DNA of 64,000 bases from Isurus oxyrinchus (taxonomy: Eukaryota). Of this stretch, positions 6,466 to 63,030 are shown piece after piece. The DNA is taken from positions 91,636,001 through 91,700,000 of the forward strand of contig JANJGN010000013.1 in NCBI GenBank assembly GCA_026770705.1, read 5' to 3'. Position 1 is the first letter of the stretch. Every line of letters begins with the position of its first letter. The position numbers were made by a program, and so were the translations under genes. The notes below the pieces were generated by a model. It had not been told where the DNA came from, made no database searches, and saw nothing but the letters and a program-made list of their open reading frames with translations.

Positions 6466-8475
6466 ATGGCAATAGGCTTAGCAGCACTGGGCAGAGGCAT
6501 CGCAATCAGGTTCTTCTTGTCTCCTGTCACAAGGCTGTTCCCGTCACCGATCCTGTTCCCGTCGCCGCCCCAGCTCCCGTCACCGATACTGTTCCCATCA
6601 CCGCCCCAGCTCCCGTCACTCACCGATCCTGTTCCTGTCACCGCCCCAGCTCCCGTCACTCACCGATCCTGTTCCCGTCACCGCCCCAGCTCCCATCACC
6701 GATCCTGTTCCCGTCGCCGCCCCAGCTCCCATCACCGATCCTGCTCCCGTCACCAGGCTGCTCCCATCACCAATCCTGTTCCCGTCAACAATCCTGTTCC
6801 TGTCACCGATCCAGCTCCCATCACCGATCCAGCTCCCTTTACCGATCCAGCTCCTGTCACCGATCCAGCTCCCATCACCGATCCAGCTCCCTTTACCGAT
6901 CCAGCTCCCGTCTCCAGTCCAGCTCCCGTCACCCTGCCAGCTCCCGTCACCGATCCAGCTCCCATCACCGATCCAGCTCCCTTTACCGATCCAGCTCCCG
7001 TCTCCAATCCAGCTCCCGTCACCCTCCCAGCTCCCGTCACCGATCCAGCTCCCATCACTGGTCCAGCTCCCTTTACCGATCCAGCTCCCGTCTCCAATCC
7101 AGCTCCCGTCACCCTCCCAGCTCCCGTCTCCGATCCTGCTCCCATCACCCTCCCAGCTCCCGTCACCGATCCAGCTCCCATCACTGATCCTGCTCTCGTC
7201 ACCGATCCAGCTCCCGTCACCCTCCCAGCTCCCATCACCGATCCAGCTCCCTTTACCGATCCAGCTCCCGTCTCCAATCCAGCTCCCGTCTCCAATCCAG
7301 CTCCCGTCACCCTCCCAGCTTCCGTCTCCGATCCTGCTCCCGTCACCGATCCAGCTCCCGTCACTGATCCTGCTCTCGTCACCGATCCAGCTCCCGTCAC
7401 CCTCCCAGCTCCCGTCACCGATCCTGCTCCCGTCACTGATCCTGCTCCCATCACCGATCCAGCTCCCGTCACCCTCCCAGCTCCCGTCACCGATCCAGCT
7501 CCCGTCTCCAATCCAGCTCCCGTCTCCAATCCAGCTCCCGTCACCCTCCCAGCTTCCGTCTCCGATCCTGCTCCCGTCACCGATCCAGCTCCCGTCACTG
7601 ATCCTGCTCTCGTCACCGATCCAGCTCCCGTCACCCTCCCAGCTCCCGTCACCGATCCTGCTCCCGTCACTGATCCTGCTCCCATCACCGATCCAGCTCC
7701 CGTCACCCTCCCAGCTCCCGTCACCGATCCAGCTCCCGTCTCCAATCCAGCTCCCGTCACCCTCCCAGCTCCAGTCTCCGATCCTGCTCCCATCACCCTC
7801 CCAGCTCCCATCACCGATCCAGCTCCCGTCACTGATCCTGCTCTCATCACCGATCCAGCTCCCGTCACCCTCCCAGCTCCCGTCACCGATCCAGCTCCCG
7901 TCACTGATCCTGCTCCCGTCACCAATCCAGTTCCCGTCACCCTCCCAGCTCCCGTCACCGATCCAGTTCCCGTCACCCTCCCAGCTCCCGTCACCGATCC
8001 AGCTCCCATCACCCTCCCAGCTCCCGTCACCCTCCCAGCTCCCGTCACCGATCCAGCTCCCGTCACCCTCCCAGCTCCCGTCACCGATCCAGCTCCCGTC
8101 AGTGATCCAGCTCCCGTCACCCTCCCAGCTCCCGTCTCCAATCCTGCTCCCGTCACCCTCCCAGCTCTTGTCATCGATCCAGTTCCCGTCACCCTCCCAG
8201 CTCCCGTCACCGATCCAGCTCCCGTCACCCTCCCAGCTCCCGTCACCGATCCAGCTCCCGTCACTGATCCAGCTCCCGTCACCCTCCCAGCTCCCGTCTC
8301 CAATCCTGCTCCCGTCACCCTCCCAGCTCCCGTCACCCTTCCAGCTCCCGTCACCCTCCCAGCTCTCGTCACCCTCCCAGCTCCCGTCATCGATCCAGTT
8401 CCCGTCACCCTCCCAGCTCCCGTCACCGATCCAGCTCCCGTCACCCTCCCAGCTCCAGTCACTGTGCTGTTCTAA
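6466..8475 (+). CDS. Repeat-derived ORF (669 aa, PAPVTD/PAPVTL repeats); probably not a real gene
   Basis: ORF track. It changes repeat reading frame several times in the 5' part, has no recognisable domain, and the minus strand is also open (6750-8462). Confidence 0.12.
   Translation: MAIGLAALGRGIAIRFFLSPVTRLFPSPILFPSPPQLPSPILFPSPPQLPSLTDPVPVTAPAPVTHRSCSRHRPSSHHRSCSRRRPSSHHRSCSRHQAAPITNPVPVNNPVPVTDPAPITDPAPFTDPAPVTDPAPITDPAPFTDPAPVSSPAPVTLPAPVTDPAPITDPAPFTDPAPVSNPAPVTLPAPVTDPAPITGPAPFTDPAPVSNPAPVTLPAPVSDPAPITLPAPVTDPAPITDPALVTDPAPVTLPAPITDPAPFTDPAPVSNPAPVSNPAPVTLPASVSDPAPVTDPAPVTDPALVTDPAPVTLPAPVTDPAPVTDPAPITDPAPVTLPAPVTDPAPVSNPAPVSNPAPVTLPASVSDPAPVTDPAPVTDPALVTDPAPVTLPAPVTDPAPVTDPAPITDPAPVTLPAPVTDPAPVSNPAPVTLPAPVSDPAPITLPAPITDPAPVTDPALITDPAPVTLPAPVTDPAPVTDPAPVTNPVPVTLPAPVTDPVPVTLPAPVTDPAPITLPAPVTLPAPVTDPAPVTLPAPVTDPAPVSDPAPVTLPAPVSNPAPVTLPALVIDPVPVTLPAPVTDPAPVTLPAPVTDPAPVTDPAPVTLPAPVSNPAPVTLPAPVTLPAPVTLPALVTLPAPVIDPVPVTLPAPVTDPAPVTLPAPVTVLF
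6536..8463 (+). repeat. 18-bp minisatellite, roughly 105 units, consensus CCAGCTCCCGTCACC(GAT/CTC)
   Basis: Tandem units visible directly. Degenerate 5' part with occasional longer units. A 13-unit block is duplicated at 7261-7494 and 7495-7728. Confidence 0.98.
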
Positions 8476-9273: not shown

Positions 9274-9498
9274 AAAACAAAAAATGCGGATGCTGGAAAT
9301 CCAAAACAAAAACAGAATTACCTGGAAAAACTCAGCAGGTCTGGCAGCATCAGCGGAGAAGAAAAGAATTGACGTTTCGAGTCCTCATGACCCTTCAACA
9401 GAACAGAACCCTTCTGTGGAAGGATCATGAGGACTCGAAACGTCAACTCTTTTATTCTCCGCCGATGCTGCCAGACCTGCTGAGTTTTTCCAGGTAAT
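9274..9498. mobile_element. Palindromic Penelope-like (Neptune-type) terminal-repeat insertion with 13-bp TSD
   Basis: Inverted arms 9317-9403 and 9412-9498; direct repeat ACTGAATTGCATA at 9261-9273 and 9499-9511. Confidence 0.9.
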
Positions 9499-9534
9499 AC
9501 TGAATTGCATAGTTTAGCTTTAATAATTTGCTTC

Positions 9535-12020: not shown

Positions 12021-12212
12021 TCCCATCTGGTTCACTAATGTCCTTTAGGGAAGGAAATCTGCTGTCCTTACCTGGTCTGCCCTACATGGGACTCTAGACC
12101 CACAGCAATTTGGCTGACTCTTAAATGCCCTCTAAACTAGGACAATTAGGGATGGGAAATAAATGCTGGCATAGCCAGTGACGCCCACATCCCATGAACA
12201 AATAATAAAAAA
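12020..12212 (+). mobile_element. tRNA-headed SINE, 3' half
   Basis: Matches 29522-29728 (cccatctggttcactaatgtcctttagggaaggaaatctgc...gacgcccacatcccatgaac) and ends in an A-rich tail. Confidence 0.85.
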
Positions 12213-14327
12213 ACTCTCACTTCTCTGGCATTCAGCTCTCCTGTTCTGGATTGAGAATGTAATAAAAGACTGGAGCCAAGTGTTTCTGGCAGAACCTAAA
12301 CTGAATATTAGTGATTATGTTATCGGTTGATGTTGCAATTGGTGACTCCTTCAATGTTGGGAGGCGATTGATTGGGCAGGAATTGATCAGATCAGATTAG
12401 TTTTGGCATTTTGTAGATAGGATATGCCTATCTTTTCTACCTTGTCCAGTAAATGCTGACGGAGGACAATTAGATCTGATTCAACACCACAGAACATGAT
12501 TAGTTAAGATTTGGCCTATCTGTATCTTTAAACATGGTGGCAGAGAGGCTTCAGATATACTTTTACAAAAAACAGTGCTAAGAAATTTTCTCTGAAATAC
12601 TATCACAATTACAGGGCAAGGCTAGGTTTTCAGTTGTTTAAACCAGTATCCCACCAGGTAGCATGCATACAAATTGAACCACAGGATTATTCTGAACCAT
12701 AACCATATGAAGCCATAAATGGATGCTTTGTAAACTGCAGGGACTGAACAAGAAACATCGAGTTGCACATCCAACCTAGATGCGAGTTTGAGTTTAATCG
12801 TATATATAATGAGTATACCTGACCTGCTTTTATTGTCAATCTAAGATGACCACTGTACCACAGCAGGAAAGGTAGAAGTTAAATATGTGGCACACATTTC
12901 CAAATGGTGCATGTTTCGAGAGTATGCTGTAAGTGGTATAAGTATTTATCTTTTAAAGTTTCAATTAATTATCCCCTTAGATGAATATAAAGCAGCTTTT
13001 ATTGATGATGCCTTATGAGGCACAAGTGGAATCAGAACATGTATGACTTTGAAAATATCATTTTGATTGTCAAAATACATTTATATTTCTGCACCAGACC
13101 TCATTACAGCTCTCTTACAGATCAAATTAAATGAAGCCTAATCTCAAGGCACCAAGCCATGCACGTAGCAAGCCTGCTAATTGAAACTATGACGTCATTG
13201 GGAATGATTTATGAACAACACAGTTTGTGTTTAGATAAAGGCACATTTATTAAAAGACATGTGGAATTCATTTTGGGTCTGGAAGTTTATGGAGCTGTCA
13301 TTTTAAACTCAGATAAAGTAAACGCAAAGACAGAAGGTGTCACTGTTAAAAAGGATGAAGCTCCAGCTGTCTTACGTAGCCCTGCCTGGCTGCAGTCATC
13401 CTTCCGACATTACTGTTCCAGTTTTCAGCAAGATACTCATTTGTGCTGTTCTCTACAATCCCCTAAAGATTTCAAGTTGCACTTACGGCCTGCTTATGAC
13501 AAAGGTTTAATGCAAAGTTCTGAATATTCGTGTAAGCTGTAAGTCACACAGCTGTGGCCTGTTTCGTGTCTTTTACTTCTAACATTTTTCTGTAGCTTCA
13601 CAAATGCAGAAATCGGTTAAATCACTATGAATGATTTTCATTCGTATTGATAACACACTATTTCACCCCAGTATATCCTCTTGCCCTGCTCCACTACAAA
13701 AACAAACTCATGTCACTGAAATAAACCTTTGCACCAATATCCTTAAAAAAGATCCTAGAACTGGTTTTCTGAAGGCCATAAACTGCTGTCTAAATTCTGC
13801 CTGAGCATTTAGTTATCAGTACTTAAATAAGTCATTTTCTATTGACAGAAGAAGCAATGGAGTTATCTTGAGATGATACAATGGCAGGTCACCAACATCT
13901 CCATACTTATAGCAAAATCCATAATTTATTCTTTTGCCCTCCTCCACTTTGAATGTTATTTCCCCACTTCCCTATATCCCCCCATTTCCCTATAGGCAAG
14001 CAGGCAATCTGTATCTTTGTGCGTCAACTCAGTTTAGTTGGTAGTTGGCAGTTAGTTATTTGGATCAGCCCTGAGGTTACAGTCCCATAGGTAGCTTTAA
14101 ATTTACTATATACTTCATTTATAATACAGTATTGGAAAAGTCTTGCATTGGCATTCGTTCATTCTTCAGATGAAATATTAAACTGAGCTCCTATCTGCAG
14201 GGAGTTCTCCTGAAGCCTTGGCCAATGTTTCTCCTTCAACTAAAAAAAAAATCCAAGTTAAAAAGCCCTTCAGATTTTGTTTCTTTACTTGCACTCAATG
14301 GCTGCTACCTGCTTGCCTACATTTCTT

Positions 14328-14555
14328 TTCATTCATTCTGGGGATATGGACATCACTGGCAAGCGCACTGCGTGTTGCCCAACCCTAGTTGCCTTTGAGG
14401 AGGTGGTGGTGAGTTACCTTCTCGAACTGCTGCAGTCCCTGTGGTATAGGTGCTCTGACAGTGTTGTTAGGTCAAGAGTTCGAGGATTTTGACCCAGCGA
14501 TGATGAAGGTACACCAATAATATCCAGCATGGGATGGTCTGTAACTTAGAGGGAA
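14328..14555 (-). mobile_element. 3' fragment of the LINE family at 49801-52880
   Basis: gggatatggacatcactggc...ttgacccagcgatgatgaagg. Confidence 0.8.
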
Positions 14556-16090
14556 TCTCCGACTACATAACAGTCACTGAACTTCGAAAGTAGTTTATCA
14601 TGCACTTTGGGGGCATTTTTAACCTGATAATGTGCTTCAGAAATGCAAATATAAATGTTTTTAAAATCATTTGCACCACTGGTGAAAAGTGAGAGGACAA
14701 TGGGAGTGGGATGGATTCTATTCTGTGCTCCTTGCCTGATGTTTGGAGTATTCCTACACCCTCTCTGTTTTGCACCAGCTAAGATTGCAGTCAGAAACTT
14801 GGTGTGTGGCCGATCACAGGCAGAGCTTACTCTCCTGCTGCTGGAAAAGCCAACCTGAAATCATAGTCCATTAAACAACCTTTTCAAAACACTGTGAACA
14901 GAATTCAAATCACAAATCAAAAATAACAGCACACTTAAAATAATGTTTAAAATAGTACAATATGTAGAATGCCAAGGTAAAAATATGAAGCAGTGAATTC
15001 TACACAAATGCTTCTTTTTTTGGTGTGGAACATTTATGGAGCACTGCACTTAAACAAGATTTTCTTCTCTGGATTCTTACTAGCTCTTGAGAACTTCCAA
15101 ATGTACGACTGAGTTGTGCTTTGGAACCTTGTGGAAGTCCTGGCACACTGACCTACATGAGAATTACAAAGGAATTGCCTGGGAAGTTTCAGCTGCTAAT
15201 AGGTAATTCCCATGCTCCCCGGACCCTCCATGAATATCTCCTACTGAGTTAGAGTTGGAGACTTGGTACAGTTCCGATGTACTTACCTGAATAGTTAGCC
15301 AGGCAATGTTAGACAGATTGAAACCTGGTCTAACTCCTGCGTAACTATAAAACTGACACCCCAAATTACCCCCAACCCATGGACTCCCCCATCAACTCTC
15401 TCCCCCAACCCCCCCGGCCAGACTACCCTACCCCACCTGACTTTCTGATCTCCACTGACCTGGCTACCCACCACCCTCCCCTCCACCACCAGACTATCAT
15501 CTTCACCTGCCTGCCATTCTACCCAAATGCCACCTCACCCATCTGCTACCTTACCCACCTGATCGTCCCTGCCCGTCTACTCAGTTACCTCACCTACCCT
15601 ACCCACTGCCCATTCACTCAATCATTCACTCACCCATCCATTCACTAACATTCAAACTGGACCTTTAAATTTACTATACAGCATGTTGTGTCGTAACAAA
15701 GGGGTGTGTCCAGTCCCCCCAATTCTACTCCACTGCAACGGAACTCTGCAAAAGATGCTGCGCTCGACATTTCTGGAAAAGCCGGGCTCAAAAGCTCCCA
15801 GAAGAAATGTGGAGCAGTGTTGAGTCAGGGAAACGTTCAAGTGGAGTGGCAATCCAACAGTGACTGTCACTCCTCAGCAGATTAGAGAAATCTGTCCCAT
15901 GTGGACTCAATGTTCACCAAGTACTCATTGAGCTGATATTAAGGGATGACCTATCATTACAACCACCTTCAACCTAATTCAAAGGAAGCCCCAATAATAG
16001 GCTCATTTAAACTCTGAACACCAGTGTTGGTTTTGAATCAGAGCTCCGTCAGTTGCACATAAGTTGTATGAACTAAAAACATACGATTAG

Positions 16091-16918
16091 CATGTCGGTG
16101 AGGGCCTCTTTTGTAAGTTACGAAAGGAAAACAACCTTTCAGCAATGATGTAAAAATGTTGAATGTGGCAGACTGATTAAGCCATGGATAAAAAAGGGAA
16201 TGTTGTATACATTATGTAGAGTGTATACCTACAAGATGTTACACTGCAGGAAATCTAAGGCGGGGTTAGCTTTATTCCTTCAAATATGTTTTTTTTTAAT
16301 ACACATTAATCTCCTGTGATTTTGCTCATGGGTAGCTGGAAGAAATGGTGGACTTGAAGCTTCTCATTGGGGCGGAGTGGTAACAAGGCAGGACTTCCAT
16401 TTTTCATTAAGGAGCATTTGGGCATGCGGGCAGGCTCCTTGGTGACATTCCCGCTGCCTAAAGAGAGCCAGAAAAACCGAAGAGAGGAATGGGGTGGAGA
16501 TGGAGTTGGGTCATCAAACAGCGAGAGATCTTAAAGAGGAAGATCAGCCCTGAAGAGGAAATAAGGAAGATGATGGAGACTGAGGCCTACAAAGGCCAGT
16601 GTATCAAAAGAAAAATCGCATTGAGGAATACAGCTAACCTCACCTTTCATTCCCTGCAGTGTAACATCTTGTTGGCATGTACTCTTTATAATGTATACAA
16701 CATTCCCTTTTTTATGCATGGTTTAATCAGTCAGCCTATCCCATTCACCTATGATATTTGACTCAGAGAGGGACCATACACTGTCAGTCATATTCAACAT
16801 TTTCACATCATAGCTTAAAGGTTGTTTTCCTTTCATAACTTACAAAAGTCACCGAAATGTTGATCTTTCCTGAAGAGAAAAGGAAGTTGATGGAGACTGA
16901 GGCCTATAAAGGCCAGTG
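16091..16918. repeat. Local inverted duplication with flanking direct repeat
   Basis: 16091-16279 is the reverse complement of 16624-16859; 16542-16601 is repeated at 16862-16918. Confidence 0.9.
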
Positions 16919-17195
16919 CTGGGGGCCAGACTACCGGGAAAGGAGACCCTTGTTAGTCCCTCTCCTTTCGTTAGCAGGAATCGGAGCCCGTGCCCTTGTT
17001 ACTCAGGGCCTTCCACCAAGCTGTGCTGGGAAGGGGCGGTAAAGCGAGTAGAGCTAAGGAAAATGCAATGGAAAACTGAGCCCCGTGTGCTGCCAGCACT
17101 GAGCAAGGATCAACTGGTCAGTCACGTTCCAACATTTTCAGAGGAAAATCCAGCTTGTAATGTGTTGTAACCTCGTTTATTCTAACAACCGCATG

Positions 17196-17580
17196 GGGAG
17201 GTGTTGGCATAGTGGTAATTCACTGGATTAGCATTCCAGGGAACAAGGATAATGCTCTGGAGACATAGGTTCAAATTCCACCATGGAAGCTGGTGAAATT
17301 TGAATTCAGTTAATAAACCTGGAATTAAATGGTAACTAGGAAACCATTGTCAATTGTCATAAAAACCCATCTGCTTCACTAATGCCCTTTATGGAAGGAA
17401 ATCTGCCGTCCTTATCTGGTCTGGCCTACATGTGACTCCAGACCCACAGCAATGTGGTTGACTCTTAACTGTCCTCTGAAAGGGCCTAGCAAACCACTCA
17501 TTTCAAGGGAAATTGGGAATGGGTAGCAAATTCTGACCTTGCCAGTGATGCCCATGTCCCATGAGAGAATGAAGGAAAAA
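17196..17580 (+). mobile_element. tRNA-headed SINE, full length
   Basis: A box TGGCATAGTGG, B box GGTTCAAATTC; body and tail match 29340-29728. Confidence 0.9.
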
Positions 17581-20084: not shown

Positions 20085-20380
20085 AATTTATTCTTTCATG
20101 GGATGTGGGAATTTATTGCCCATTCCTAATTGCCCTTCAGAAGATGGTGGTGAGCTGCCTTCTTGAACCGCTGCAGTCCCTGTGGTGTAGGTACACCCTT
20201 AGTTGTTAGGGAGGGAGTTCCAAGATTTTAACCCAGCGACAGTGAAGGAGCGTCAAAATATTTCCAACTCAGGATGGTGAGTGGCTTGGAGGGGAACTTC
20301 CAGGTGGTGTTGTGCCCATGCACCTGCTGCTCTTGTCCTTCTAGGTGGTACAGGTTGCGGGTTCGAAAGGTGCTGTTAAA
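20085..20380 (-). mobile_element. 3' fragment of the LINE family at 49801-52880
   Basis: Colinear with 49805-50110. Confidence 0.9.
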
Positions 20381-21444: not shown

Positions 21445-22026
21445 ATTCTTTCCTGGGACTTGAGCTTTGCCGGCTGGGCCAGCATTTTTATTGCCCATCC
21501 TTAATTGCCCTAGATAAGGTGGTGGTGAGCCGCCTCCTTGTACCGCTGCAGTCCATGTGGTATAGGCACACCTACAGTGCTGTTAGGGAGAGAGTTCCAG
21601 GATTTTGACCAGTGACAGTGAAGGAATGGTGATATAATTCCAGGTTAAGATGGTGTGTAGCTTGGAGGGGAACTTGGAGGCGGTGGTGTTCCCATCAATC
21701 TGCTGCTTTGTCCTTCTAGAAGGTAGAGTTTGTGGGTTTAGAAGGTGCTGTTGAAGGAGCCTTGGTGAGTTGCCGCAGTGAATCTTGCAGATGATACACA
21801 CTGCTGCTACTATGCGTCAATGGTGGAGGGAGTGGATGTTGAAGGTGGTGGATGGGGTGCCAATCAAGTAAGCTGCTTTGTTCTGGATGGTGTTGAGCTT
21901 CTTCAGTGTTGTGGGAACTGCCCACCCAAATGGAGAGTATTCCATCACACTCCTGACTTGTGCCTTTGAGGCGGCTCTGGGGAATTAGGAGGTGAGTTAC
22001 TCTACAGAATTCGCAGCCTCTGACCT
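21445..22026 (-). mobile_element. 3' fragment of the LINE family at 49801-52880
   Basis: Colinear with 49810-50392. Confidence 0.9.
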
Positions 22027-29335: not shown

Positions 29336-29730
29336 AATGATGGCATAGTGGTAACGACACTGGACTAGTAATCCAGAGGTCCAGGCTAATACTCTGGGGA
29401 CATGGGTTCAAATCCCACCATGGCAGCTCGTGGAATTTATTTTCAATTAATTAATAAAATCTGGAATTAAAAACCAGTCTTAGTAATAATGACCATGAAA
29501 CCGCCGTCAATTGTTGTAAAAACCCATTTAGTTCATTCATATCCTGTAGGGAAGGAAATCTGCCGTCCTTACCTGGTTTGGCCTACATGTGACTCCATGC
29601 TCACAGCAGTGTGGTTGACTCTTGGTTGCCCTCAGAAATAGCCTAGCAAGCCACTCAAATCAAGGGCAATTAGGGATGGGCAACAAATGCTGGCCTTGTC
29701 AGTGACACCCACATCTCATGAAAGAATACA
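29336..29730 (+). mobile_element. tRNA-headed SINE, full length
   Basis: A box TGGCATAGTGG at 29341-29351, B box GGTTCAAATCC at 29405-29415, LINE-type tail caagggcaattagggatgggcaacaaatgctggcc. Confidence 0.92.
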
Positions 29731-29944
29731 TTTTTAAAAATATAATAAAATCACTCACTCCAGGAGGTCTGATCCATGCTGCCAGCAACTGAGACATCCT
29801 CAGGGAACACTAAGTCAAAAGCACTATCTTTGCATTCCACAAACAGTGTTTCTCAATTTGAAAAGGCAACAGGCCAAGCCTGCAACTCCAGTCAAGACTG
29901 CAACACCAAATACTTCAGCATTACAGGGGGCGGGAAATCAGATG

Positions 29945-46243: not shown

Positions 46244-46662
46244 TGATTGCCACTTGACTGACACCCCATCCACAAACATTTGCTCCCTCTATCACCGATG
46301 CACAGTGACAGCAGTGTGTACCATCTACAAGATGCAATGCAGAAACTCACCAAGGCTCCTTAGGCAGCACCTTCCAATCCCACGACTACTACCATCTAGA
46401 AGGACAAAGGCAGCAGATACATGGGAGCACCATCACCTGCAAGTTTCTCTCCAAGTCACTCACCATCCTGACTTGGAAATATATTGGCGTTCCTTCACTG
46501 TTGCTGGGTCAAAATCCTGGAACTCTCTTCCTAAAAGCACTCTTCCTACACCACATGGATTGCAGCAATTCAAGAATGCAGCTCACCACCAACTTCTCAA
46601 GGGCAACTAGGGATGGGCAATAAATGCTGGCCCAGCCAGCGATACCCACATCCTGTAAATTA
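46244..46662 (+). mobile_element. 3' fragment of the LINE family at 49801-52880
   Basis: Reverse complement of 49810-50220; ends gggcaataaatgctggcccagccagcgatacccacatcc. Confidence 0.92.
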
Positions 46663-47119
46663 ATTTTTAAAATGTTGCTTTGGCCTCTAAGAAGTGTCCA
46701 AGATCAACCTGGAGTGATCTTTCCTTCACTTAACATCTTAGCACATTGACACCACTGAGATTACAATCCCACCCTGTACAGGAATCAAGGCAAGAAAATG
46801 ACACTCCACTTCAAAGCAGGAGACTGAGACATTGCAGTGAGATCTATACCACGTCCTTCCACAGGCAAAGGCGAGTGGCACATCAAAGCTTTTACAGAGT
46901 AAAATCTGAAACAGATTTAGTCTGATGATGTCAGGATGAGCAATAAATGTGAATTTGTTAGCAATGCCCAGAGCTTGAATACAAACACAAATGAGGGAAA
47001 TTTCTACTCGAGTGCTAAAGTATTCTAGCACAAGAATATTGACGAGGGTCATAATTATCATTAAATAAACTAGAACTGGGTTTTTGGCCTTGCTAAATTA
47101 CGAATAAGATTAATGATTA

Positions 47120-48565: not shown

Positions 48566-49800
48566 TATCCTGCCTCCATCTATCCGTTTTAGTTCCATAA
48601 TCCTCGCTACCCTTTTCCTAGCAAAAATCTTTTAATTTAAATCTTCGATTTTTCAGTTGATCTGGCCTCAAAAGTTTTTCGGGGGGAGAGTTCCAGATTT
48701 TATGTGTGTGAAGAAGTGCTTCCTGATATCACTTCTCAATTACCTAGCTTTAATTTTAAGGTTTTTCTCCTTGTTCTGGGCTGTCCCATAAGAATATAAG
48801 AAATAGGGTAGCAATTGGCCATTCAGCACCTCGTGCCTGCTCCACCATTCAATAAGATCATGGCTGATCTGATTGTGACCTTAAATCCACTCTCCAGCCT
48901 GTCCCCCATAACTCTCGACTCCCTCGTCAATCAAAAATATGTCTAACTCAGCCCTCAATATAGTCAATAACCCAGCCTTCACGGCTCATTGGGCAAGGGA
49001 GTTCCAAATACTAACAACCCTCTGAGAGAAGAAATTCCTCTCGGTATCCATCTTAAGTGGGAGAGGCCTCATTTTTAAACTGTGTCCCTTTGCTCTAGAT
49101 TCCCCCACGAAGGGAAAAATCCACTCAGCATTTCCCTTATCTAGCTACATCAGAATTTCATATGTTTCAATAAGATCACCTCCCATTCTTCTAAATTAGT
49201 ACAACACAATCTGCTCAACCATTCCTCGTTAAGAAAAAGCCCTCATCCGAGGAATTAGCCTAGTGAACCTTCTCTGAACTGTTTCCAATGCAAGTTTATC
49301 CTTCCAAAGCAAGGCGACCAAAACTATACACAGTACTCTAGGTGTGGTCCCACCAATGCTCTCTACAGTTGTAGCAAGGCTTCCCCCTACTTTTATACTC
49401 GATCCCCCTTGCAATAAAGGCAAACATTCCGACTGCCTTCCTAAGTATTTGCTGTACCTGCATGCTGACTTTTTGTGATTCACTGATGCCTCTATACCGC
49501 AGTATTCGATAGCCTCTCTCCATTGAAATAATATTCTGCTTTTCCATTTTTCCTGCCAAAGTGAAAAGCCTCACATATTCCCACATTATACTTCATCTGC
49601 CAAATTTTTGTCCAAACCTATCTATATCCCTTTGCACATTCCTTATATCCTCGTCACAACTTGTTTTCCTACTTATCTTTGTATCATCAGCTGCAACACA
49701 GTTGGTCCCTTCATCCAAGTCATTAATATAAATCGTAAATAGTTGAGGTCCCAGCACCGATCCCTGTGGCACTCCCTAAGTTACAGTTTGCCATCCTGAG

Positions 49801-52239
49801 ATTTTTTAATATTCGTTCATGGGATGTGGACGTCACTAGTTAGGCCAGCATTTATTGCCAATCGCTAACTGCCCTTGGAAAGGTGGGGGTGAGCTGCCTT
49901 CTTGAACTGCTGCAGTGTAGGTACACCCACAGTGCTGTTAGGAAGGGAGTTCAAGGATTTTGACACAATGACAGTGAAGGAAGGGCGAAATATTTTCAGT
50001 CAGGCTGATGAGCGACTTGGAGGGGAACTTGCAGGTGGTGTTGTTCCCATCTATCTGCTGCCCTTGTCTTTCTAGATGGTAACAGTCATGGGTTTGGAAG
50101 ATGATGTCTAAGGAGCCTTGGTGAATTCCTGCAGCACATCTTGTAGATGGTACACACTGCTGCCACTATGTGTCAGTGGTAGAAGGAGTGAATGTTTATG
50201 GATGGGGTGCCAATCAAGCAGACTGCTTTGTCCTGGATGGTGTCAAGCTTCTTGAGTGTTGTAGGGACCACACTCATCTAGGCAAGTGCAAAGTATTCCA
50301 TTGCATTCCTGACTTGTGCCTTGTAGATGGTGGACAGGCTTTGGGAAGTCAGGACATGAGTTACTCATCACGGGATTCCTAGCCTCTGACCTGCCTTTGT
50401 AGCCACAGTATTTATATGGCTGGTCCAGTTCAGTTTCTGGTCAACGGTAACCCCCAGGATGTTGATAGTCAGGGATTCAGTAATGGTAACACCATTGAAT
50501 GTCAAGGGGCAATGGTTGGATTCTCTTTTGTTAGAGATGGTCATTGGCTGGCATTTGTGTGGCATGAATGTTACTTACCATTCGTCAGCCCAAGTCTGGA
50601 TATTGTCTGGGACTTGCTGCATTTGTACATGGACTGCTTCACTTTCTGAGGAGTCGTGAATGCTGCTGAACATTGTGCAATCATTAGTGAACATCCCCAC
50701 TTCTGACCTTATGATGGAAGGAAGGTCATTGATGAAGCAGCTGAAGGTGGTTGGGCCTAGGACTCTACCGGAGGTAGTGATATTCTGGAACTGAGATGAT
50801 TGACCTCCAACAACCACAACCATCTTCCTTTGTGCTAGGTATGACTCCAACCAGCAGATTCCAGTTTTGCCAAGGCTCTTGATGCCACACAGTCAAATGC
50901 TGCTTTGATGTCAAGGGCAATGACTCTCACCTCACCACGGGAGTTCAGCTCTTTTGTACATGTTTGAACCAAGGCTGTGAGGAGGTCAGGAGCTACGTGG
51001 CCCTGGCAGAACACAAACTGAGCATCAGTGAGCAGGTTATTGCTAATCAAGTGCCACTTGATAGCAATGTTGATGACCCTTTCCATCATCTTACTGATGA
51101 TCACGAGTAGACTGATGGGCAGTAATTAGATCGGCTGGATTTGTCCTGCTTCTTGTGTACAGGACATACCTGGGCAATTTTCCACACAGCCGGGTAGATG
51201 CCAGTGTTGTAGCTCTACTGGAACAGCTTGGCTAGGGGTGTGGTAAGTTCTGGAGCACAAGTCTTCAGTACTATTGCCAGAATATTGTCAGGGCCCATAG
51301 CCTTTGCAATATTCAGTGCCTTCAGTCATTTCTTGATATCACGTGGAGTAAATCGAATTGGCTGAAGACTGGCAACTGTGATGCTGGGGACCTCCGGAGG
51401 AGGCCATGATGGATCATCCGCTCAACATGTCTAGCTGAAGATTGTAGCAAATGCTTCAGCCTTATCTTTTGCACTGACGTTCTGGGCTCCTCCATTATTG
51501 AGGATGGGAATATTTGTGGAGCCTCCTTCTCCAGTGAGTTGTTTAAATGTCCAACACCATTCACGACTGGATATGGCAGGACTGCAGAGCTTAGATATGA
51601 ACTGCTGCTTGTGGAATCGCTCACTTCTGTCTATCACTTGCTGCTTATGCTGTTTGGCATGCAAGTAGTCCTGTGTCACCAAATTAACACCTCACATTTT
51701 AGGTATGCCTGGGGCTGCTCCTGGCATGCCCTCCTGCACTCTTCATTGAACCAGGGTTGATCCCCTGGCTTGGTAGTAAGGGCAACATGGAGGATATGCC
51801 AGGCCATGAAATTACAGATTGTGGTTGAGTACAATTTTTCTGTACAATTTTTGAGTACAAATTTTCAGCGCCTCATGGTTGCCCAGCCTTGAGTTGCTAG
51901 CTCTGTTCAAAATCTATCCCAGGTAGTAGTGCCATACAACGCGATGAAGAGTATCCTCAATGTGAAGAAGGGACTTCATCTCCGCAAAGACTGTGCGGTG
52001 GTCACTCTTTCATGTACTGTCATGGGCAGACGCATCTGCGGTGAGGATAATGTCCAGTATATTTTTTCCTCTTGTTGGTTTCCTCACAACCTACTGCAGA
52101 CCCACTCGGCCAGCTCGGTCTGTATTGATGCTTCTGAGCCACTCTTGGTGATGGATCTTGAAGTCCCCCACCCAGAGTCCATTGTGTGCCCTTGCCACCC
52201 TCAGTCCTTCCTCCAAGTGATTCACTAGCTGAAGTGAGG

Positions 52240-52273
<34 letters not shown>

Positions 52274-52880
52274 CGGTGGGGGTGTGGTGGTGGTGGTGGT
52301 GTAGGGTGGAGGTGGGGGGGCAGAAGGTTTCCTTGCCCATGTTTGACCTGATGCCACAAGACATCATGGGGTTCAGAGTTAATCTTGAGGTCTCCTAGGA
52401 CAACTTCCTCCTGACTGTATGCCACCACATTGGTGTCTGCGCCATTTTCTGTAAGGTATGATTCCATGAGTATGACCATGTCAGGATGTTGCTTGACTAG
52501 TCTGTGAGACAGCTCTCCCAATCTTGGCACTTGACCCCAGATGTCAGCAAGGAGGGCTTTGCAGGGCCAACAGGGCTGAGTTTGCCATTGTCGTTTCTGA
52601 GGTCTGTCCGCTTCCAGTCCTTTTTGACTTTTTAGCGATTTGGTGCAACTGAGTGGCTTACTAGGCCATTTCAGAGGGGATTTAAGAGAAAAACCACATT
52701 GTTGTGGATTTGGAGTCAAATGTAAGCCAGACCAAGCAAGGCTGACATATTAGTGAACCAGACTTTTAATTCCAGGTATTTATGAAATTTAACTTTCAGC
52801 ATCTGCCTGTGGCGGGATTCGAACCCAGGTTCCCAGAGAATCACCTTGGATCTCTAGTCCAGTGTGCCATCGCCTCCTAC
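49801..52880 (-). mobile_element. Near full-length single-ORF LINE (CR1/L2 group) with tRNA-like 5' head
   Basis: APE motifs (PDMVILMESYL, LWVGDFK), RT motifs (ALDIKAAFD, VLGPTTFSCFINDLP, MFTNDCT); B box GGTTCGAATCC at 52815-52825; many frameshifts. Confidence 0.9.
52238..52320 (+). repeat. Poly-G (33 nt, 52241-52273) plus (GGT)n tract
   Basis: Directly visible. Confidence 0.95.
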
Positions 52881-53687
52881 TCATTTATTCTTACTCTTTA
52901 TGTCCTGTTAGTTAGCCAGTCCTCTATCCATGCCAATATACCACTCCCAACACCGTAAACTCTAATCTCATGTAGTAACCTTTTACATGGCACCTTATCA
53001 AATACCTTTTGGAAATCCAAAAATGCTGCATCTACCAGCTCCCCTTTATTCACCCCGTCAGTTGCATCCTCAAAGAACTCTAATAAATTTGTCAAACACA
53101 AATTTCTTTTCACAAAACCACATTGTCTCTGTCTGTTTGTATTATGTCCCACTATTACCTCCTTAACAATGGATTCTAGCATTTGCCCAAAGACAGATGT
53201 ATGGCTAATTGGCCTATAGTTTCCTGCTTTCTGTCTCCTTCCTTTTTTGAATAGAGGTATTACATTTGTGACTTTTCAATCTGTTGAGACCTTTGCAGAA
53301 TCTGGGGAATTTTGGAAAATTACATCCAATGCATTCATTATCTCTACAGCCACTTCTTGTAAGACCCAAGGTGCAGGCCGTCAGGTCCAAGGGACCAGTC
53401 AGGCTTCATTCCATTACTTTTCTCAATTACTTTTTCTCTAGTGATAGTGCTTTGTTTTAAATTCCTCCCCCACTTTTGCTTCTTGATTTTTCTACAATTC
53501 TCGAGGTGTTTTTGTGTCTTCTACTGTGAAGACAGATACAAAATACTTTTTCAAAATCTCTGCCATTTCTTTCTTTCCCATTATTAATTCCGCAGTCTCA
53601 CCCTCTAAGGGACTATGCTCACTTTAGCTACTCTGTTCCTTTTCATATACTTGTGGAAACTTTTATTAGCTGTTTTTATACTTGTTT

Positions 53688-62599: not shown

Positions 62600-63030
62600 A
62601 TTTCATAAGCTTAATAGGCCATCCAGTCTGCTTATCAGCCTGAAATATTCATTCCCTTCACCACTGGCGTGTCATTGTTGCTGTGCACACCATCCACAGG
62701 ATGCAACTCGCTTAAGGCTTCTTAGACTGTACTCTCCCGCAAAATCCCAATCTTAACCATCTAGGAGATGATTGAAAGGCAACTGTATTGGAATATCATC
62801 ACCTCCAAGTTACCCCCTAAGGCACGTACTATCCCAACTTGGACATGTATCATCATTTCTTCACTGACGCTTTGTCAAAATTCTGGAATTTGATATCCAA
62901 CAGGACTGCGGGAATATCTTCACCACACGGATTACATTGATTCAATAAGACATCTCACAACCATCACCTTCCCAACAACAATTTGGAATGGGCAATAATT
63001 GCTGACCTTGTTAACCTATTCTTCCAAGAC
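62600..63030 (+). mobile_element. Old 3' fragment related to the LINE family at 49801-52880
   Basis: Degenerate match to 46244-46662 (ccatctagga...catcacctccaagtt...gtcaaaattctggaat...gggcaataattgctg). Confidence 0.65.

Follow-up and report, generated by a model that had tools for sequence, protein, structure and literature searches.

A tRNA-headed Zenon LINE in a shark genome, possibly transcribed by RNA polymerase III, and its bipartite partner SINEs

As a working rule LINEs are Pol II units and SINEs are Pol III units, the weakly processive Pol III limiting its elements to a few hundred bases, with SINEs measuring 100–700 bp (PMC10886601). Non-SINE retroelements with small-RNA-derived Pol III promoters, as proposed here for a LINE, are known in the form of Cassandra, Helenus and Ajax (TRIMp3; PMC10886601), but these are short, non-coding LTR elements, unlike Zenon. 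Elasmobranch Zenon is described in the consulted portions of Stuart et al. 2026 (PMC13343379) as a LINE of ~3.3 kb that lacks ORF1 and ends in a poly-A tail, and the element reported in this study likewise has this length, no ORF1 and an A tail. The terms 'tRNA' and 'polymerase III' do not occur in the main text of that paper, nor 'tRNA' in its supplement, and partner SINEs are undescribed in these portions. A lepidopteran Zenon-clade LINE is known to yield abundant 5′+3′ internal-deletion elements, namely Persaeus SIDE (Wang et al. 2019, PMC6740152), as is found here; Persaeus, however, is not homologous to a tRNA and lacks a Pol III promoter, whereas in the shark both parent and derivative carry a tRNA-like head. 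The plan of the SINEs described below, a tRNA head followed by a LINE 5′ part and a LINE 3′ part, is that of Bov-tA, AfroSINE and SINE2_Gav (Kojima 2018, PMC5786205). In the sections of that survey considered here it is the deletion product that acquires the head, and the donors are RTE and Vingi LINEs only, whereas in the present case the coding LINE itself is headed and belongs to the CR1 group. The same sections contain LINEs with tRNA-like sequence, RTE-1_DAn and relatives, which are of a different clade from Zenon.

Among elasmobranch SINEs, HE1 (V domain, HER1 partner) and SacSINE1 (Deu domain, L2 partner) are, in the excerpts considered, tRNA-derived with a LINE-derived tail, as here. 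We take the SINE body of the present elements to differ from the V domain and from HE1. SINE-derived 5′ ends on BovB have reportedly been seen and would be a precedent. Identity of the SINE body with Deu, Meta or UCON3 was considered and rejected, as by eye it does not resemble the domain alignments in the consulted part of the PMC7245038 supplement; motif searches of the MetaSINE supplements, as far as these were covered, gave no match either. No description of a tRNA head on Zenon or of a Pol III-transcribed coding LINE was found in the literature searched; Repbase, Dfam and most subscription journals, which may annotate the SINEs and the head, lie outside this scope.

The window analysed, i.e. 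the whole stretch of 64,000 nucleotides from Isurus oxyrinchus (contig JANJGN010000013.1, positions 91,636,001 to 91,700,000), harbors on its minus strand at 52878-49801 a full-length but decayed copy of the single-ORF elasmobranch Zenon LINE. At the level of sequence its identity as elasmobranch Zenon, the published ORF1-less CR1-group LINE, is confirmed. The copy is dead; its tRNA-like head is, on a slight balance of the evidence, likely of a kind that drives Pol III over the whole 3.3 kb, and on the same balance the neighbouring SINEs are likely internal-deletion derivatives. The motifs quoted in the preliminary description were located by direct inspection at 52878-52647 on the minus strand, and the parts of the element and its surroundings are as follows.

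52790..52878, minus strand: Zenon LINE head resembling a tRNA, with part of the A box deleted and with erosion of the anticodon-like arm and the long variable arm (based on sequence and on ARAGORN applied to the family head at a relaxed threshold, with tRNA-Ser(AGA) the best of 6 isotypes)
52815..52825, minus strand: B box (GGTTCGAATCC), intact, read directly
52647..52789, minus strand: body common to the LINE and the SINEs, its end being the type A SINE junction (from alignment)
52546..52646, minus strand: LINE-only leader, with an A-rich linker, a conserved out-of-frame AUG site (mutated here, ~52617) and, in frame with the endonuclease, a stretch rich in Arg
49865..52545, minus strand: single endonuclease and reverse transcriptase ORF, in which stops and frameshifts occur together with a C-rich insertion near 52320-52240
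49801..49877, minus strand: 3′ tail common to both SINE types, with the last codons, a predicted stem-loop and a short A tail
52879..53606, minus strand: host CR1 LINE, portion upstream of the insertion
49178..49800, minus strand: host CR1 LINE, portion downstream of the insertion

Compared with the family majority the copy is 88.7% identical (2657/2995 aligned bases). Its ORF is interrupted by many stops and frameshifts, ~44 nt of the body and 8 nt around the anticodon and variable arm are missing, and the loss of 12 nt from the A box agrees with the partial deletion noticed in the preliminary description. The whole element splits one CR1 copy, which is picked up again at 49799 with at most 5 nt lost. 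Since a single CR1 copy is interrupted by the whole element, head and ORF arrived in one insertion event, and since the locus contains only one tail, it is not a LINE nested in a SINE. No target-site duplication is found at the CR1 insertion point, nor are consistent target-site duplications present in 21 Zenon copies with both ends. That two elements were inserted side by side or one within the other at this one locus, a reading for which only the decayed state of the copy can be adduced, is ruled out for practical purposes by the clean single-tail insertion into CR1 and by the fact that dozens of loci, as well as the published consensuses, show the same join. Elsewhere in the window, six 5′-truncated 3′ fragments of Zenon are found, at 772-1059, 14327-14553, 20111-20376 and 21445-22026 on the minus strand and at 46250-46664 and 62787-63007 on the plus strand.

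Attachment of the head was followed through the family with differently chosen queries. With a query devoid of the head, 40 of 6025 candidates were scored and 30 kept as loci, 29 of which are non-self (two of the 29 being duplicates). Full-length copies without the head, by which the preliminary description would have been reduced to a one-off chimera, were looked for among them; instead, head or body is found in register at 26 of the 29 loci, 14 of which reach the first 60 nt, 6 the head and 6 the body, while 3 stop earlier. No other family-specific 5′ end occurs in these 29 loci, and an upstream match of L034 to L053 and L055 looks like a separate CR1-type repeat. A query containing the head gave SINE-like sequence ahead of the LINE part in 29/29 other loci, a count biased by the choice of query. 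An outgroup-protein query returned 30 loci, all belonging to the Zenon family (30/30); when 20 of these were extended, 10 were found to begin in the head (first 70 nt) and an eleventh to carry it behind a tandem duplication, other upstream sequence being common to one near-duplicate pair only. Five copies obtained by a Pfam endonuclease search start in the head (two), in the body (two) and in the ORF (one). Thus, by the head-free and the outgroup-protein query alike, the tRNA-like head on a coding LINE that had been proposed from the single copy is a stable property of the family.

In an alignment of 14 Zenon copies column agreement rises from ~0.45 to 0.8–0.9 at the head and falls after the A tail. 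The copies have sharp ends and unrelated flanks, and their exact 5′ edge is the head. What is repeated is a single unit of head, body, ORF and tail, and the head is a family-wide feature. The published consensuses CarCar_Zenon-1, ScyCan_Zenon-1, RhiTyp_Zenon-1, HypSab_Zenon-1 and SquAca_Zenon-1 to -3 (PMC13343379) belong to the same family, their first 400 letters matching head, body and leader by eye. All seven, from four sharks and one ray, begin with the head. Hagfish and coelacanth Zenon, in contrast, show by eye no such head in the 400 letters given and contain TTTT runs, the start of the coelacanth sequence being of low confidence. Whether the family had already been described had been left open in the preliminary description: judged by these sequences the LINE is a known one, and its head is a feature common to sharks and a ray that is unremarked in the consulted portions of PMC13343379. 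As a side observation, short pieces of the Zenon ORF are expanded as tandem arrays on small contigs (~61 bp in L205/L215 and ~56 bp in L193).

At relaxed thresholds ARAGORN recognises the family head as a tRNA whose anticodon loop is AGT and whose variable arm is long. None of 300 shuffled heads is called (0/300), and the tRNA likeness is therefore not a matter of chance. An Rfam scan of single decayed copies (10 loci) gave no tRNA match. Among six isotypes taken from this genome tRNA-Ser(AGA) aligns best, with z of 6.3 for the LINE head and 7.8 for SINE A. Motifs resembling the A and B boxes are retained about as frequently in LINE heads (26/42 and 27/42, respectively) as in SINE heads (12/19 and 13/19 in one set, 10/20 and 15/20 in another).

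Two types of SINE, denoted A and B, are represented in the window.

17195..17580, plus strand: type A SINE (head, body to LINE position ~313, tail)
29338..29735, plus strand: type A SINE
12022..12212, plus strand: type B SINE, 5′-truncated (body to LINE position ~291, tail)

With a tRNA-related head bearing A and B boxes, the 3′ tail of a partner LINE and no coding capacity, these elements classify as tRNA-derived SINEs (SINE2). The colinearity of the LINE 5′ end with SINEs near 17196-17580 and 29336-29730, as stated in the preliminary description, is borne out up to the junction: the LINE and the SINEs at 17195-17580 and 29338-29735 align as far as GCCACTCAGT(T) at 52648, where the LINE runs on into endonuclease and reverse transcriptase. 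The equation of the SINE tail with the last ~70 nt of the LINE holds equally, with 82% over 68 nt (49877-49810). The SINEs are composed of the first 291 (type B) or 313 (type A) nt of the LINE joined to its last ~70 nt, and the common 5′ part ends exactly where the tail starts, as a deletion predicts. The type B junction lies 23 nt earlier than that of type A; the 3′ join points agree to within 1 nt. This suggests a single tail junction followed by the loss of 23 nt rather than two independent deletions; type B may be a later shortening by 23 nt and not a second deletion from the LINE.

Between the majority heads, the LINE is identical to type B at 283 of 289 positions (98%) and to type A at 265 of 287. 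The two SINEs cited in the preliminary description are both of the type A variant, type B being nearer to the usual LINE head. In best-hit samples the median divergence is 0.10 for the LINE, 0.10 for type B and 0.125 for type A. The type B sample is slightly inflated by L225-L228 and L233 (G000:C3:2.54-2.85 Mb), five near-identical adjacent loci that are probably segmental duplicates. Although a type A head is rare among the LINE copies of this genome, dogfish LINE consensuses show type A diagnostics by eye in the letters given, so that both SINE types are matched by a LINE. No sign was found that the type A LINE copies of this genome form a subfamily of their own (1 diagnostic site against 0.94 in permutations, with five type A rows scattered in a poorly resolved tree).

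Typing of the LINE heads bears on how they were acquired. One type accounts for 48 of the 54 typed heads, though both SINE types occurred in the flanks; the other 6 are mosaics of type A or A/B, and their ORFs do not group together; 10 further heads are untyped. The mosaics could be taken to mean that the master LINE is headless and that each headed copy is a separate chimera, the reverse transcriptase having jumped to abundant SINE RNA at insertion. Against this stand the uniformity of the remaining heads, the lack of an alternative 5′ end in three differently chosen samples and a T-run signature (see below) that lies in the ORF itself, and such serial chimerism is considered very improbable. 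L213 and L191 have closely related ORFs (support 100/99) and different head types, likely a recent head swap.

Some type A SINEs have B-like 5′ parts. Together with the mosaic heads this points to template switching in both directions, which keeps a deletion-first route (PMC5786205, sections considered) viable, if tentatively so. In this reverse order a headless Zenon would have given rise to a 5′+3′ deletion product, which would have gained a tRNA head as a SINE and passed it back to the LINE by template switching within the common body. The order would follow the route published for SINEs of this plan; moths have headless deletion products of Zenon in the form of Persaeus (PMC6740152), the mosaic heads indicate that SINE-to-LINE transfer occurs, and the exact junction would be explained as well. 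However, neither a headless LINE nor a headless deletion product was encountered among the loci examined, and with the head present on 7/7 shark and ray consensuses, in the portions given, any transfer would predate the split of these lineages. We regard this history as rather unlikely; it concerns the past only and would be compatible with Pol III transcription today. Of the scheme in the preliminary description, according to which a LINE captured a tRNA promoter and then spawned the SINE by deletion, the bipartite 5′+3′ nature of the SINEs thus stands, whereas the LINE-first order is putative, as the mosaic heads indicate exchange in both directions. Head and tail are also retained in additional forms with internal deletions at other breakpoints, seen in L003, L064 and L073, and as joints in Logan contigs on L074 (1125-4039, 1160-4049 and 1194-4032).

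The sense strand of the LINE is depleted of T-runs, as the preliminary description had proposed to check. In the 14-copy majority (3258 nt) no TTTT and 6 TTT are found, compared to 4.8 and 23.1 expected from base content, while runs of at least 3 A, C or G are near expectation. A 24-copy set likewise gives no TTTT and 6 TTT in 3285 nt, and a 5-copy set no TTTT and 4 TTT in 1800 nt (expected 3.0 and 13.8). In raw copies TTTT amounts to 0.71/kb for Zenon against 2.87/kb for CR1. The host CR1 family, taken as a control, has 4 TTTT and 19 TTT (expected 3.8 and 15.4), and two other LINE families have TTTT/TTT of 8/26 (expected 4.7/20.8) and 6/20 (expected 4.8/20.5). At synonymous sites, those before G being excluded, the T:C ratio changes with run length from 72:146 at run 1 to 23:85 at run 2 and 1:30 at run 3+ (p=2e-4); the same test gives p=0.36, 0.85 and 0.12 in three other LINE families of this genome, none of which is of the Zenon clade (L276 and the singleton L267 were left out). 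This is not a UA effect, since T before A is not much rarer than before C (37:84 vs 35:62).

The zero count of TTTT alone is not significant (dinucleotide shuffles P 0.17–0.21, own-codon shuffles P 0.056), the significance of the signal being carried by TT and TTT. The usual Pol III terminator is a run of four Ts and thus longer than these. Runs of at least 4 C are also slightly low (P 0.03 and 0.07), the non-canonical terminators TTTVTT and TTVTT are low without reaching significance, and Phe codons are scarce in close relatives too (2.2–6.7% vs 2.0% in Zenon). Taking promoter position and strand-specific T avoidance together, Pol III transcription of the LINE is about an even bet.

Alternatively, the head may be fixed on the LINE while Pol II transcribes the coding RNA, starting in the leader or reading through from the host; the tRNA boxes would then mainly serve the SINEs, and the T-poor strand would have some other cause, for instance inherited composition or the avoidance of splicing or decay signals. 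Transcription of LINEs is described as a Pol II process (PMC10886601; also PMC5786205, sections considered), a capped RNA is easier to translate, and the non-significance of the missing TTTT fits this explanation too. On the other hand, the avoidance rises with run length, affects T on the sense strand only and is absent from the three other LINE families; the box-like motifs are as frequent in LINE heads as in SINE heads, and the exact 5′ edge of the copies is the head. Transcription by Pol II is accordingly held to be the less probable explanation, by a clear measure. If Zenon RNA is a Pol II product, the finding reduces to a feature of a known family that has gone unannotated.

The coding region poses a problem of its own. 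Only ~120 nt separate the common body from the endonuclease motif and there is a single long frame, which bears out the absence of ORF1 noted in the preliminary description. The endonuclease frame opens just inside the body, and its first in-frame Met is located ~290 residues in. No in-frame AUG precedes the endonuclease, and none of the 12 upstream AUGs is connected to the ORF by open frame. Of 60 copies, 46 have an AUG at position 345, out of frame and most commonly at a distance of 92 nt from the endonuclease Asn codon (19/60); it is visible by eye in 6 of the 7 published consensuses, in the letters given. The in-frame stretch ahead of the endonuclease is Arg-rich, as are the N-termini of several relatives. 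Zenon copies match RVT_1, five of them match PF14529, and the copies end in ATGAATGAAT followed by a short A run (poly-A tail). The reverse transcriptase is 29% identical to the CR1 reverse transcriptase region of this genome and 38–46% identical to non-shark relatives without a clade label, which make up most of what the protein searches returned; metagenome relatives (5 loci, 30–37% identity) have no long ORFs. Judging from these reading frames, a non-AUG start or a frameshift is needed for translation of Zenon.

In the Pol III explanation preferred here, to which we give roughly even chances as a whole, Zenon would be an autonomous coding retrotransposon transcribed end to end by Pol III from a captured tRNA-Ser promoter. 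Its ORF would have been cleared of U-runs and would be translated with neither cap nor in-frame AUG. Such an element would be LINE and SINE at once, giving off SINEs in a single step. Pol III would be recruited by the A and B boxes of the head, and T-runs would be selected against, as they would terminate this polymerase. Translation of the uncapped RNA would begin in a non-standard way, either at a non-AUG codon or at the conserved out-of-frame AUG followed by a shift of frame. The protein would bind the 3′ stem-loop and insert a copy by target-primed reverse transcription. Loss of the middle of the LINE would leave promoter and tail as a ready-made SINE, and the reverse transcriptase would later exchange heads between LINE and SINE RNAs within the common body. 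The Pol III model is strained by the need to translate an uncapped RNA with 12 upstream AUGs.

If true, a coding element of 3.3 kb would have used a tRNA promoter to spread in shark and ray genomes, contrary to the Pol II/Pol III rule, and an unusual mode of translation would be needed. Furthermore, the SINEs would have a one-step origin, and their body would have a LINE source outside the RTE and Vingi clades, such as was not found in the consulted sections of the Repbase-wide survey (PMC5786205).

Logan contigs of four runs, three of them presumed RNA, cover the Zenon element as assembled contigs. Separately, the run X20, labelled coral metagenome RNA, has 3517 contigs on Zenon, for which contamination or mixed material is likely. 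Apart from the Zenon elements, the window contains a tandem repeat at 6539-8445 (18-bp unit, ~105 copies, 79% matches), a 190-bp near-perfect palindrome at 9313-9502 and a pair of long inverted repeats at 16085-16918, each of the latter two possibly being a non-autonomous DNA transposon.
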